A stretch of DNA of 47,149 bases from a phage: the sequence record PZ445406.1. One strand, given 5' to 3'. Below, one piece after another: positions 2,399 through 39,714 of the stretch. Each line of letters opens with the position of its first letter. The stretch's first letter is position 1. The notes below the pieces were generated by a model. The model was given only the letters and a program-made list of their open reading frames with translations, had not been told where the DNA came from and did not search any database. Made by a program: the position numbers and the translations under genes.

Positions 2399-2893
2399 AT
2401 GGCAATTCGTTCTGTAGCACTCGCTGGTATGATTTCTGATACCTCTCTGTATAACATCGACGGCGCTTGTGTGGTTGGCGGCGCGACTGCAATTCCAGCT
2501 GGGACCGCGGTTTCTGTTACCTCAGCCCAGCCGGTTGATGGTCACAAGATTGTTACTGCTGCTAACGTAGCGGCGGACCCGGCAACCGGCGCAGGCGCTC
2601 TCGGCGTTGTAGTTCGCTCTCATTATGATACTCCTGACGGCACCGCGCGAGTAAATGAGGCAGTGAACGTTCTCACTGCTGGCAGAATCTGGATGCGAAC
2701 CACGCTTTCTTCAGCACCCACCTTTGGAGCTTCAGTGTTGATTAACGAAGCTGGTGTCGTGGCAGCTGGTGGCGTAGCAACTGGCTGGACATTCGCAGGT
2801 GGATTTGTGACTGGTTACACTGGTACTGACCCAATTCAACCTGGCCAATCAGTTGATGGCGCGCTTGTTGAAGTCCAGGTTAAGCAGAAGTAA
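2399..2893 (+). CDS. head structural or decoration protein (putative)
   Basis: AAGGAG SD; Gly/Ala/Thr/Val-rich; immediately upstream of major capsid gene; terminator follows. Confidence 0.4.
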   Translation: MAIRSVALAGMISDTSLYNIDGACVVGGATAIPAGTAVSVTSAQPVDGHKIVTAANVAADPATGAGALGVVVRSHYDTPDGTARVNEAVNVLTAGRIWMRTTLSSAPTFGASVLINEAGVVAAGGVATGWTFAGGFVTGYTGTDPIQPGQSVDGALVEVQVKQK

Positions 2894-33699: not shown

Positions 33700-34064
33700 T
33701 AATGTGCGTATCTTTATCTGGATGTTCAGCGACTGATGCACTGACCGGATTGATTGGCAGTAAGCCGGAAATTAGTGCGCAGGCTGGTGCAGAGAATAAC
33801 AAGGTTGGAGTTGGGTTAACGAATAAGGTTGACTCAAGTAACTCCAGCGAAGCCACTGTGAAAGACTCTAAAGTTGGCTCGCTAGATAGCTCAAGCGGGA
33901 AAAAGACTGCTGACAACTCTATTAAGGCATCTACAATCACCGCGGAAAAGATTGAGATTACCAACAACGAATCATCCGCACTTCCGTGGATTGGAACTGG
34001 AGCAATGGGGTTGCTGGTTCTGATTCTCATGGCATTAATCTTAAGACGTAAAAAAGCCTCCTAA
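33675..34064 (+). CDS. unimolecular spanin (T1 gp11-like)
   Basis: Lipobox LSGC plus C-terminal TM helix; overlaps endolysin 3' end. Confidence 0.6.
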   Translation: MLKWVAALVMCVSLSGCSATDALTGLIGSKPEISAQAGAENNKVGVGLTNKVDSSNSSEATVKDSKVGSLDSSSGKKTADNSIKASTITAEKIEITNNESSALPWIGTGAMGLLVLILMALILRRKKAS

Positions 34065-34080
34065 TGGAGGCTATATTTTT
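34051..34080. terminator. bidirectional terminator after spanin
   Basis: AGCCTCC-taat-GGAGGCT with flanking A-run and T-run. Confidence 0.55.
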
Positions 34081-34414
34081 AGCTAAATAACTCGTCGTCA
34101 GTCATTGTTCCTATATTCATCATCTCTTTTATGTACTTGCTTTGATACCCGTTAAGCGCCTCGAAGTTAAACTCAAATGGCCTCTTCAAGCTACCCTTGC
34201 TAGCAAACTCACCGCACTTACCATCAATGTATCCCATGCTAAGCATCTTCGCGCAGAACTCCTTTGAAGCGGCGCTGCAAAATTCTCTGTGAGATAATCC
34301 TGCTGCTTTGCTAAATCTCTCAGAGTCCTTGTGTTGGTAGATGAATCGCGCCAAATGCTGGCGCGTAAAGTATGAATACGACTCACAGAAGCGGTATAAA
34401 TCCAAAATGAACAT
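34079..34414 (-). CDS. hypothetical protein
   Basis: 111-aa ORF downstream of ATPase gene; bidirectional terminator at its 3' end. Confidence 0.45.
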   Translation of the reverse strand: MFILDLYRFCESYSYFTRQHLARFIYQHKDSERFSKAAGLSHREFCSAASKEFCAKMLSMGYIDGKCGEFASKGSLKRPFEFNFEALNGYQSKYIKEMMNIGTMTDDELFS

Positions 34415-34417
34415 TCA

Positions 34418-36001
34418 TCACCCCAGCAATCTCGGATTAATATAAACTTTATCACCAATCAGGCACGTATAGTTTTTCTCATCAAGCATTGGCAGTAAGT
34501 GATCTTTAATCTTCGTCATCACCCCAGCCTGAGCCTCGAACGGCTTAACCTTGCGCGCTGCCTCATACAATGAACGAACACCAACAACTCCCTTACCGTT
34601 TTTGCCTTGCTTGATCAGGATATCAATAAGCTTATTCATCTCGGCATTGTCTCCAGCGTGACCCGCAGCGTTGGCAGATGATAGATACGTCTTGCTCAGC
34701 TCCTGGAACATAATTACTGCCTCTTGCATGGTGTCTAGCTCAATCTCTCTTGACTTCTGTGGACTTCCACCGTTAGGGTTGAACCAGTTACGCACAGTGT
34801 GAAGAACCGCTGCAATCCTGATGGCCTGTTTATCGAACTTCCCCAACGCGCCGCGCAACATTGTGTGGGAATACTTACCGCCGTCAGCAAGGTGAGGTTC
34901 CATTTCCTGACGAGCGCGGTTTAGGTATTTCATTGCTGAATTACTCACTGTCAACTTTACTTCTTGCTCGTTCATTATTTCGTGAACCAATCGGAAGTAG
35001 TCAGCCTTCAACCCGCCATCAATTGGTTCATAAGTCGATTCGCCATTTTCATCAACGAATACACGCTCACCCAGGAATGACTTTTCACGAACCAAAAGGA
35101 AACGTTCAGATACACCGATACCGCGCGCACCAGCATTCATGATTGCGTTAATTGTTTCGTCTTGCGCAATTACAGAGATGCAGCCCATAGCAACGAAGCT
35201 CATGTTGTTCTCTGCGTTCGCACGGGCGATAGATACGTTACCAGCATCCCATGCTTTAAGCACAAGCTCGCTGTTCGTTTTCTTTGAGCCATCGCCATAC
35301 GTCATGCCAAGAAGTGAATTCACGCTCGTTGCTTCATCCGAGATTACTGCGAAGTTTCCCTGGCGGTTGTTTATTCGGGCCAAGCCTTCAGGCGTAGTGT
35401 CTGATACGGGGAAAACGATATCGCAAAGTTTCTCGAGCTTCTCCTCTAAATCTTCTTTTTCCTCAAATAGTGAAGCCATCTCTGACGGAGATTTTTCCTG
35501 CTTCATCTCTTTGGATAATGCAGATAGTTTGGCCATGATCTTTTTACGCTCACGCTTTCGCACTTCATTCAGTCGCTCAGTCTCGGCAATCATTGGAGCA
35601 ATTGAAAGTGAGTTAATAGCTGATTTACCAGTAGATGGTGGCTGGCTTGTTACGACGTAAAGCGACGTGGGCTGCTGAGTTCCGTGATACTCTACAGTGA
35701 ATCGACCAAGCATAGCAGCGGAAATACACCCCAGGAAGTGCATGTAAGCTGAAGATTCAGGGAACTGAACCGAACGAGCAATGTTGGCTGACAGTTTACC
35801 AACAACATCAATATCATTTCCTAGTGAGATTACAGGATACTTGTCATTGGCAGCGTCAATCTCTACTGGCGCCTTCCAGAATGATTGGGACTGTCGATAG
35901 CCATTAGCATTGATGGCGACACGCAAAGGCGGGAGGTTGTCTGCGGCAGCGATTGCCATAACCTGTTCAACAGATAGTTTATCTTCGTTGAAATCAAACA
36001 T
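34418..36001 (-). CDS. P-loop ATPase (possible replication helicase-like protein)
   Basis: Walker A-like PPSTGKS and Walker B-like VISDEA; coiled-coil insert; termini shared with 39187-39714 protein. Confidence 0.5.
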   Translation of the reverse strand: MFDFNEDKLSVEQVMAIAAADNLPPLRVAINANGYRQSQSFWKAPVEIDAANDKYPVISLGNDIDVVGKLSANIARSVQFPESSAYMHFLGCISAAMLGRFTVEYHGTQQPTSLYVVTSQPPSTGKSAINSLSIAPMIAETERLNEVRKRERKKIMAKLSALSKEMKQEKSPSEMASLFEEKEDLEEKLEKLCDIVFPVSDTTPEGLARINNRQGNFAVISDEATSVNSLLGMTYGDGSKKTNSELVLKAWDAGNVSIARANAENNMSFVAMGCISVIAQDETINAIMNAGARGIGVSERFLLVREKSFLGERVFVDENGESTYEPIDGGLKADYFRLVHEIMNEQEVKLTVSNSAMKYLNRARQEMEPHLADGGKYSHTMLRGALGKFDKQAIRIAAVLHTVRNWFNPNGGSPQKSREIELDTMQEAVIMFQELSKTYLSSANAAGHAGDNAEMNKLIDILIKQGKNGKGVVGVRSLYEAARKVKPFEAQAGVMTKIKDHLLPMLDEKNYTCLIGDKVYINPRLLG

Positions 36002-37931: not shown

Positions 37932-37964
37932 TTATTTCTCCTTTCCTCTCGTTTCTAGGACTGA

Positions 37965-38009
37965 ATCATAGCAACCAACCACTGATAGGTCATTAGCAAA
38001 AAGTGCTAT
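37965..38009 (-). promoter_or_regulatory. phage-type promoter module (leftward from region B)
   Basis: Minus strand ATAGCAC-tttt-TGCTAA, 22-bp spacer, TATGAT. Confidence 0.5.
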
Positions 38010-38569
38010 TCGTTAGATTTATGGATTGTTGCAGATATTGAAATTATTATCATGATTATTGCACATATAGCAATATTGCTTCAGATGCAATGATGTTTTT
38101 GATTGTTGCGGATTGAGCAATGAAGTGGTGGGGGAGTGAATGAAAGATGGATGGACTAACATACAAGTTGATTTTGACTCCCGATAACCTATCCTGTGGT
38201 ATACACGTAACCGCCGTATACTCAGTGTCGTCACAAAAGTTAGTGGACACTAACCTACGTTTTTTACGCCAATATACACTCGATATACAATATAATATCT
38301 ATATATATCAACCTTTTACTTTATTATTATTATTATTATTATATATATGTATACCGTGTATACCGGTCATGGATGGAATAGTTGATATGTTCCGCGCAGA
38401 TATTCTGACACTTGTCAGAAAGGGATGACATTGTAGGAATAAAAAGGCACATATATAGGAAATATCCTCAAAAATCTGTACACAGTGGATACGGCAGGTT
38501 TACAACCAGTGCCGGAGCGGGCTTGAGAGGCAAAATGCGTATCCATGATAAAATATACTAAAATATACA

Positions 38570-38598
38570 TTGACCGACACGTAAATAGGTGGCAATAT
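38570..38598 (+). promoter_or_regulatory. sigma70-like promoter (rightward from region B)
   Basis: TTGACC, 17-18 bp spacer, CAATAT/AATATA; leader CACTGAAACGAAG follows. Confidence 0.4.
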
Positions 38599-38638
38599 AG
38601 CAATCACTGAAACGAAGTAAACCAAACGAGGTATTAAC

Positions 38639-39187
38639 ATGCAGAAAGTAACACTAGGTGAAGTTATCCGCGAGATGGTTCGTAACGCGATGGCGTCTGA
38701 TGGTGGTGAATTCAAAGTTCCGGTTAGCCAGATATTCAAGCTGGTTCGCGGGAAAGAATACCCTGAGATGCGGTATGATGAGGATACCAGTGAGATCCTA
38801 AACCTTGCAGATAGGGCGATGCCGGAACTAAAGAACTCATACATTTATAATACGGTTTCGAGAATGACCGAGCTTCGAGATGCAAACAAGCGAGCGCGCT
38901 ATAAGTTCATCTGGATTGATGAGGATGGCGAGCAGGTAAGCCCTGGTAGCTTCGATGGTGATGGCGCCGATAAATACCTGGTAATATACATTGAGGACGG
39001 CGCGCACTGGACTGGAAGTCGCGAGAAGAAAAAGCAGGAATCGGAGAGGGAGGCAGCAACCATTGAAAGGTTTAAATCTCGATTGCTCAAGCTGTCACCT
39101 AGCGTCGCTGGGCTGGAAGGTGATGAACTTAAGGGTGCTGTTGCAATGATTAATGCTTATCAGGAAATGATTAAGGAAACCAAATAA
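38639..39187 (+). CDS. hypothetical protein (first rightward early gene)
   Basis: sigma70-like promoter and conserved leader upstream. Confidence 0.5.
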   Translation: MQKVTLGEVIREMVRNAMASDGGEFKVPVSQIFKLVRGKEYPEMRYDEDTSEILNLADRAMPELKNSYIYNTVSRMTELRDANKRARYKFIWIDEDGEQVSPGSFDGDGADKYLVIYIEDGAHWTGSREKKKQESEREAATIERFKSRLLKLSPSVAGLEGDELKGAVAMINAYQEMIKETK

Positions 39188-39714
39188 TGTTTGATTTCAA
39201 CGAAGAAAAGCTGACAGATGAGCAGGTCATGAGTATTGCGAAGCAGGATGGGATTCCCCCGCTACGGGTTGCAATCAATGCAAACGGGTATCGTCATGTT
39301 CAACACCTCTGGAGTCATCCTGATGCGTCATCAATCCACAAGGGTGAGGCTGTTGAGGTTCTGCTGACAGCGATAAGGACTGAATCTATAGCTCGCAGGG
39401 GAGTTGTTGGCTTACAGAAGTCTTATGACCTAATTAGGAAGCTAAAGAGGTTTAAAGGTGACAATGACGGGCTAATGGAGAGGATTAAGGACGAAATGAT
39501 TCCAGAGCTAGAGAAAGCGAATCTCGTTTGCCTCATTGGAGATAAGATTTATGTCCACCCGGCTATCATTGAGGAGTCCTGGCAACCCAACTTCAAAACT
39601 TACGAAGGTGATCACACTAGTAGACTACCATACCACTTGCGGTACAGTGAGGCGGAGGTGGAAGAGGCTATTGAGTTCTACCGGAAGACTAAATCACTCC
39701 TGAATGGCGAATAG
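39187..39714 (+). CDS. hypothetical protein sharing N- and C-termini with the 34418-36001 ATPase
   Basis: First ~40 aa and last ~30 aa align with the 527-aa protein; central domain absent. Confidence 0.5.
   Translation: MFDFNEEKLTDEQVMSIAKQDGIPPLRVAINANGYRHVQHLWSHPDASSIHKGEAVEVLLTAIRTESIARRGVVGLQKSYDLIRKLKRFKGDNDGLMERIKDEMIPELEKANLVCLIGDKIYVHPAIIEESWQPNFKTYEGDHTSRLPYHLRYSEAEVEEAIEFYRKTKSLLNGE

Follow-up and report, generated by a model that had tools for sequence, protein, structure and literature searches.

Several viruses make shorter, motor-less forms of a replication helicase or initiator from the same gene, as in the case of OBPC (UL8.5) and UL9 of herpes simplex virus 1, gp4B and gp4A of T7, A* and A of phiX174, and small t or 17kT and large T of simian virus 40 (SV40). 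These short forms arise by internal initiation or splicing, have a non-catalytic domain in common with the helicase or initiator, and modulate replication or host functions. Here we describe a comparable pair of proteins in the window analysed (the whole 47,149-nucleotide (nt) stretch of sequence record PZ445406.1), which is the complete genome, in rotated form, of Escherichia phage JeanPiccard (BASEL Bas02, MZ501080.1; Drexlerviridae, Braunvirinae), window coordinates being those of the MZ501080.1 record minus 2592. The pair consists of a 527-amino-acid (aa) helicase, encoded by bas02_0053, and a 175-aa paralogue without the ATPase, encoded by bas02_0063, a separate gene 3.2 kb away on the opposite strand (Table 1). 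Because they are made from one gene, OBPC, gp4B, A* and small t are identical to the longer protein in the sequence that they share, whereas the small protein of JeanPiccard comes from an anciently diverged gene in another operon and keeps both ends of the helicase, with the middle missing. SV40 small t resembles it in one further respect, in that it joins an N-terminal domain common to large T to a C-terminal effector of its own.

The large protein belongs with the DUF3987 proteins, which are MCM-related phage replicative helicases of superfamily 6 (SF6) with a winged helix-turn-helix at the C-terminus, mostly associated with a primase (Kazlauskas et al. 2016, PMC4889955). AgaPH, the one DUF3987 protein for which ATP-dependent DNA unwinding has been demonstrated, is a proven oligomeric 5'-3' helicase and binds its own primase (PMC11724360). 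For the small protein, the nearest bacterial-virus precedent in logic appears, by analogy, to be that of P4, in which the alpha protein is described as having a C-terminal winged-helix origin-binding domain (PMC2777425), and the small protein Cnr controls copy number (PMC8628076). The likeness would lie in a small protein that regulates a primase-helicase with a C-terminal winged helix, and the primase of T1 is annotated as P4-alpha-like. However, the P4 helicase is of superfamily 3 (SF3) and not MCM-like, and Cnr, which has neither the N-terminal module nor the tail of the JeanPiccard protein, is not an evident paralogue of the P4 helicase; hhalign gave no sequence relation of the small protein to P4 (probability 0.2% for Cnr and 3.9% for the alpha origin-binding domain). 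The winged helix through which P4 alpha binds the origin was reportedly studied, along with Cnr, by Yeo et al. in 2002.

The helicase and its motor-less paralogue

Both sequence and predicted fold mark the 527-aa protein as an MCM-like replicative helicase of the DUF3987 (SF6) type. Residues 81-430 matched Pfam DUF3987 (PF13148) with 142.4 bits (cutoff 27; E 2.7e-41), the protein matched phrog_2373, 'DNA helicase', with an E of 6.6e-259, and the top 50 Foldseek matches of its AlphaFold model (pLDDT 89.6, pTM 0.87) in the PDB were all MCM subunits, either MCM2-7 or archaeal (best E 3e-6, probability 1.0, TM about 0.35). The initial annotation had recognized a P-loop ATPase with a coiled-coil insert, and this was borne out: the Walker A motif PPSTGKS is at residue 121 and the Walker B motif VISDEA at 219, with SERF at 298, and the insert corresponds to a long helical hairpin in the core of the model, formed by helices 126-166 and 172-191. 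In an alignment of 42 helicase homologues (alignment A3), Q120, P121, P122, S123, G125, K126, S221 and E223 were invariant. The model has four parts, namely a three-helix N-module, a linker, an AAA+ core and a winged helix at 451-521, of which the N-module and the winged helix are the least conserved across the wider helicase family. Like the described DUF3987/SF6 helicases, the protein thus combines the Pfam match, Walker A and B motifs, an MCM-like fold and a C-terminal winged helix with a separately encoded primase; AgaPH differs in having a PriCT domain where the JeanPiccard helicase has the Drexlerviridae-specific three-helix N-module. Among the BFVD matches, the DUF3987 helicase is annotated as at least two fragments (for example, 116 aa plus 335 aa) in Salmonella phage 36, Vibrio phage Vc1 and Shigella phage 2019SD1, which suggests split genes, insertions or assembly errors, and in T1 an HNH endonuclease gene lies immediately upstream of the helicase gene.

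The small protein, annotated as hypothetical, proved to be homologous to both ends of the helicase and to nothing in between. BLASTP aligned residues 1-45 of the two proteins with 31 of 45 identical (69%, E 4e-20) and helicase residues 448-526 with residues 51-128 of the small protein with 29 of 80 identical (36%, E 2e-15), and detected nothing significant between the two segments. The PHROG profiles of the two proteins also cross-matched, phrog_7327 finding the helicase (E 2.3e-54) and phrog_2373 the small protein (E 2.7e-19). The similarity of the termini and the absence of the ATPase core, both proposed initially, are therefore real, and both open reading frames (ORFs) are present as annotated coding sequences. 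The extent of the shared parts had been put at about 40 N-terminal and 30 C-terminal residues, but the second block is about 80 residues long and comprises the whole winged helix. Nor does this block form the C-terminus of the small protein, as had been supposed, since it is internal (51-128) and is followed by 47 residues (129-175) without a counterpart in the helicase. We conclude that bas02_0063 is an old paralogue of the helicase gene, from which the AAA+ motor of about 390 residues (approximately 46-435/447) was deleted in frame and to which the 47-residue tail was added later.

Pairwise alignment and structure prediction agree on this architecture. In the AlphaFold model of the small protein (pLDDT 80.5, pTM 0.69), the same three helices as in the helicase occupy residues 11-41, and a winged helix of the same topology follows directly (55-123). 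An independently predicted 140-aa protein of phage DTL in BFVD superposes on the JeanPiccard small protein with 1.8 Å over 141 columns (TM 0.93), so that N-module and winged helix together make up a single compact body. The motif PPLRVAINANGYRQS hardly varies in helicase and small protein alike, and the two also have the stretch PPLRVAINANGYR in common. In both proteins the recognition (third) helix of the winged helix is neutral to acidic, and basic residues cluster at H1-S1-H2 (first helix, first strand, second helix).

In terms of families, the small protein is a full-length member of phrog_7327 (residues 1-175 against profile positions 1-179 of 179, E 2.1e-66), with 326 database relatives; this family carries no annotation, and the link to the helicase is missing from its description. 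A search of the small protein against Pfam DUF3987 gave no match, and because the ATPase domain, present in other DUF3987/SF6 proteins, is wholly absent, it is better regarded as a derivative of the DUF3987 family than as a member. When 1.84 billion representative proteins were searched in full with HMMER, only 49 clusters were returned, of which about 10 (at 50% identity) were full-length small paralogues of 164-185 aa that keep the same three-part architecture, the remainder being fragments, or helicases that aligned at one end or at both. Among these representatives no other protein carried the tail, and neither the modules nor the tail matched a named family in Pfam (E up to 10), NCBIfam, PADLOC or the PDB sequences.

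The tail is the best-conserved part of the small-protein family, with a mean top-residue frequency of 0.89 (N-module, 0.80; winged helix, 0.77), and many of its residues are invariant. Its linker (142-146) is modelled with low confidence and it ends in an amphipathic helix (155-172; EVEEAIEFYRKTKSLL), and in distant members of the family the linkers differ whereas a terminal amphipathic helix of the type EEVxxAIxFYRKAK is kept. As a separate observation on the N-module, the protein P0271 (633 aa, eukaryote-like, with a C-terminal DnaJ domain) contains five tandem repeats of TAEEALAAAEAEGLPLIRSAASSSGYKHV, to which the N-module profile aligns through its positions 9-38 (E 2.3e-8 across the five stretches); the pattern E..IA..DGLPPLRVA..NGYRHV may thus belong to a wider, unnamed motif.

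The duplication is old. In 14 of the 14 genomes tested, synonymous divergence (pS) between the two paralogues of one genome was 0.63-1.0, which is saturated, while the non-synonymous distance (dN) was 0.20-0.40 in the N-module and 0.28-0.96 in the winged helix; nucleotide identity was 52-63%, and protein identity, depending on the phage, was 60-73% in the N-module and 36-66% in the winged helix. Saturated synonymous sites with protein similarity kept imply an ancient duplication held by selection on the protein, in line with the initial view that it was old and maintained. Recent gene conversion between the two genes was considered, the winged helices being more than 60% identical in some phages, and was rejected because pS was 0.63-1.0 everywhere and in both modules. 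The identity at the DNA level noted initially at the gene starts is a run of 22 nt, TAATGTTTGATTTCAACGAAGA, across both start codons. An RNA-level or translational operator common to both genes was rejected as its cause, given that synonymous sites in this run vary freely in 15 other genomes, and the identical start is a coincidence of JeanPiccard. No third copy of the shared modules was found within the window.

Gene layout and possible mimicry of helicase docking surfaces

As the initial annotation had stated, the two genes are in opposite operons, which diverge from a 707-nt intergenic region. The rightward operon begins with the DUF7174 gene bas02_0062, followed by bas02_0063 and then by many small ORFs up to the terminase genes. 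The stop codon of the DUF7174 gene overlaps the ATG of the small gene (TAATG) in 16 of 16 genomes examined, from which translational coupling of the small gene to the DUF7174 gene may be inferred, and the same order of the two genes was seen in the phages L006, L007, L009, L037 and L038. The replication and recombination genes annotated in JeanPiccard are those for a primase (bas02_0035), two helicases (the second of superfamily 2), a single-stranded DNA-binding protein, an exonuclease and a recombinase, whereas the annotation lists no DNA polymerase.

The likeliest reading, if somewhat short of probable, is that the small protein mimics the docking surfaces of the helicase and thereby regulates or diverts its recruitment, a suggestion made by analogy with P4 Cnr and alpha or with OBPC and UL9 of herpes simplex virus. 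The N-module and winged helix are the peripheral, non-catalytic surfaces of the helicase, of the kind that serve recruitment, loading or origin contact in MCM, SF3 and DUF3987 helicases. The small protein would be made early, from the first pair of cistrons of the rightward operon and presumably coupled to DUF7174. With these surfaces on display but no motor attached, it would bind the ligand that the helicase binds, be it a partner protein (for example, the P4-alpha-type primase) or the conserved intergenic DNA, and so time, limit or redirect helicase loading, with the private tail supplying a second contact. Because the recognition helix is neutral to acidic, a protein ligand or a non-specific DNA contact would be likelier than classical major-groove recognition. 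The initial suggestion of a decoy, adaptor or regulator that competes for the partner of the helicase is thus a reasonable one, and it gains some indirect strength from the near-invariance of PPLRVAINANGYRQS in both proteins.

Several observations weigh against this proposal. The same neutral-to-acidic helix makes sequence-specific binding to an origin doubtful, and the fast divergence of the small-protein winged helix (36-66% identity to that of the helicase) fits poorly with strict competition for one conserved ligand. The N-modules of the two proteins did not co-vary within genomes (0.629 vs 0.629), a weak test in that the helicases are nearly invariant. The small gene is frequently lost, so any such regulation is dispensable, at least in laboratory hosts. 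Neither expression nor phenotype data for the small protein were found in the literature searched.

Another reading would be hijacking of the host replisome, in which the N-module of both proteins binds a component of the host replisome and the early small protein captures or redirects this component before the helicase is made. The lack of an annotated DNA polymerase is in keeping with this idea, as are the position of the small gene in the early operon and the N-module core, which is nearly invariant in both proteins and specific to this phage family. However, replication proceeds in T1 and in most Drexlerviridae although they lack the small protein, and the helicase N-module is among the least conserved parts of the helicase in the wider family, which is unexpected for a conserved host contact. 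We regard it as quite improbable.

The intergenic region contains a core of about 170 nt (37995-38165) that is conserved across eight phages with differing flanks and carries GATTGTTGC(A/G)GAT repeats at 38024 and 38101 together with ATTGCAAT-like palindromes; a conserved (TTA)n/TATA tract (38300-38350) follows it. The core is a candidate origin, pac site, or early promoter or operator region; an Rfam search of the intergenic region found no family, and in T1 the genome end and terminal repeat are located in the equivalent gap. The DUF7174 gene is the most divergent of the region between phages (33-80% identity), and no structure, family description or paper for DUF7174 was found in the searchable literature. 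At the other end of the leftward operon, an ORF of 111 aa (phrog_2794; 34079-34414, minus strand) lies directly 3' of the helicase gene, with an identity of 87-92% in Braunvirinae and 56% in Nouzillyvirus.

Divergence, distribution and truncated alleles

Between phages, the two genes had similar synonymous divergence (0.48-0.71 for the helicase gene and 0.50-0.83 for the small gene), whereas their non-synonymous divergence (pN) was 0.01-0.06 and 0.19-0.43, respectively; at equal synonymous divergence, the small protein thus changes 10-20 times faster than the helicase. Horizontal replacement as the main cause of this divergence was rejected, since in the same pairs of phages both genes differ about equally at synonymous sites. 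Within the region, variability is greatest in the small gene and the adjacent DUF7174 gene, and the helicase gene is the most conserved. Between orthologues of the small gene, pN/pS was about 0.33-0.36 in all three segments, which indicates purifying but relaxed selection. Among seven alleles of the Braunvirinae type, the tail had a pS of 0.32 compared with 0.55-0.57 for the N-module and winged helix, which could reflect a separate recombination history or a constraint at the nucleotide level.

By tblastn, a full-length small paralogue was found in 111 of the 739 phage records with a helicase-type match (about 15%), 43 of the 111 representing one Veterinaerplatzvirus clone, in which the allele is broken. 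The carriers are Drexlerviridae of E. coli, including Braunvirinae, Nouzillyvirus, JK06, phiEB49, AHS24, e4/1c and C119; in T1, the small paralogue is absent and no DUF7174 gene could be detected. The small gene is therefore a non-essential accessory gene and not a core replication factor. In one phage (L029), whose helicase is 93.5% identical to that of JeanPiccard and whose DUF7174 is nearly identical, the slot after the DUF7174 gene holds an unrelated 66-aa ORF that retains only the initial MFDLDE (L029 about 2590-2790, minus strand), as though a recombination event had taken place just within the beginning of the small gene.

Broken alleles of several kinds were found (Table 1). Three independent stops fall within six codons (141-146; window about 39607-39624) in three diverged lineages, all within the predicted disordered linker. 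Three of the four single nonsense mutations are thus in this short segment, where they remove only the tail and leave the helicase-homologous body whole; with a small sample of about 18 distinct genomes, this clustering is no more than suggestive. Beyond the two older stops, the sequence downstream can still be recognized as tail but is substituted at otherwise invariant positions, which marks the stops as true truncations instead of read-through sites and implies that constraint operates on the intact alleles. Programmed read-through at codons 141-146 is accordingly unlikely, there being three positions, two types of stop, decayed tails and, in one lineage, loss of the terminal stop.

The broken alleles in DTL, CEB_EC3a, the Veterinaerplatzvirus clone, the OR861626-type phages, L019 and IME542, together with the replacement in L029 and the absence of the gene from most of the family, might be taken to mean that the small ORF is a functionless leftover of the helicase duplication, heading for loss. 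Such a remnant would hardly be expected to retain an N-module 60-73% identical to that of the helicase when pS is saturated, or a pN/pS well below 1. Moreover, about 10 full-length clusters (at 50% identity) have the same three-part architecture, many tail residues are invariant, the coupling at the start codon is conserved, and the tail decays visibly at its invariant positions once it has been cut off. We therefore hold decay to be very improbable.

A role directed at the host fits the fast evolution, the variable slot and the recurrent loss of the tail almost as well as regulation of the helicase does. The small protein might be a counter-defence factor or decoy, imitating the exposed termini of the helicase and soaking up a host immune sensor or inhibitor, or its tail might act on a host factor; it would then be in an arms race, in which the tail could be recognized by some hosts. 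Besides the 10-20-fold difference in rate (pN 0.19-0.43 vs 0.01-0.06), its place is suggestive, as the small gene and the DUF7174 gene, the most variable of the region, open an early operon made up of small ORFs, and its distribution is patchy, down to the unrelated 66-aa ORF in the L029 slot. The three independent nonsense mutations at codons 141-146, which spare the helicase-like body, also give the pattern expected if the tail is conditionally harmful. On the other hand, a relaxation of constraint while the phages were propagated in the laboratory could account for the truncations equally well, and the overall pN/pS of about 0.33 offers no sign of gene-wide positive selection; PADLOC and NCBIfam models gave no match, and a defence system sensing DUF3987 helicases was not reported in the literature searched. 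On balance we consider a counter-defence role doubtful, though worth serious attention. In a more specific and distinctly unlikely version, the decoy would shield the phage replisome from a host sensor or inhibitor while the private tail itself is the target that some hosts recognize, so that three lineages would have cut exactly the tail and kept the helicase-like body; if true, a helicase-derived decoy with a built-in liability would be a class of phage counter-defence so far undescribed. Mimicry of the docking surfaces and the decoy both remain likelier than hijacking of the host replisome or decay.

Table 1. Positions of the helicase gene, its small paralogue, their modules and neighbouring features in the window, and of lesions in small-gene alleles of other phages (codon numbers)
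Feature	Position	Strand	Remarks
Helicase gene bas02_0053, 527 aa	34418-36001	minus	ORF and annotated coding sequence, 'putative helicase'
Helicase N-module, residues 1-45	35867-36001	minus	Helices 11-21, 25-33 and 36-41; common to small protein
Helicase AAA+ core, residues 66-446	34664-35806	minus	Walker A/B, hairpin 126-191; missing from small protein
Helicase C-terminal winged helix, residues 448-527	34421-34660	minus	H-S-H-H-S-S topology (H, helix; S, strand) at 451-521; common to small protein
ATPase-less paralogue bas02_0063, 175 aa	39187-39714	plus	ORF and annotated coding sequence, 'hypothetical protein'; phrog_7327
Small protein N-module, residues 1-45	39187-39321	plus	Homologous to helicase residues 1-45
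Small protein winged helix, residues 51-128	39337-39570	plus	Homologous to helicase residues 448-526
Private tail, residues 129-175	39571-39711	plus	SWQPNFKTYEG..SRLPYHLRY conserved; helicase without counterpart
DUF7174 gene bas02_0062	38639-39187	plus	First gene of rightward operon; Pfam DUF7174 E 8e-48
Intergenic region	37932-38638		Conserved non-coding core of about 170 nt, GATTGTTGC repeats, AT-rich (TTA)n tract
Bidirectional terminator-like hairpin	34055-34072		Closes leftward (helicase) operon against lysis cassette
Broken allele, vB_EcoS-12210-type phages (L012/L006)	Codon 141		TGA
Broken allele, DTL (L014/L004)	Codon 141		TAG; aligned to JeanPiccard codon 142
Broken allele, OR861626-type phages	L038 6421-6423		TGA replacing invariant R146
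Broken allele, CEB_EC3a	Codon 37		TAA
Broken allele, L019			Multiple lesions
Broken allele, IME542			Split ORFs

Significance for T1-like phages

No description of the JeanPiccard helicase and paralogue pair, of phrog_7327 or of DUF7174 was found in the searchable literature, and a literature search for Drexlerviridae escape mutants or for papers on the helicase of T1-like phages yielded nothing relevant. The helicase itself is of a known kind, and so are the short forms without a motor that viruses derive from the gene of a replication helicase. What is unusual is a separate, anciently diverged gene in which both ends of an MCM-like helicase are kept and a conserved private tail is added, and whose product evolves an order of magnitude faster than its parent and recurrently loses only the tail.

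The replication of T1-like phages, with an MCM-like helicase and a P4-type primase and no polymerase, is poorly understood. The motor-less helicase isolates two peripheral modules in one small soluble protein and is thus a ready-made probe for their ligands, be these the primase, the origin or a host factor. Since JeanPiccard forms part of the BASEL collection and can be grown on E. coli K-12, and since relatives with naturally truncated alleles exist, the question is directly testable by experiment. If the small protein is a decoy, it would point to a host system that senses phage helicases; if it regulates loading, it would be the counterpart, in a bacterial virus, of the control that winged helices exert over MCM loading in archaea and eukaryotes.

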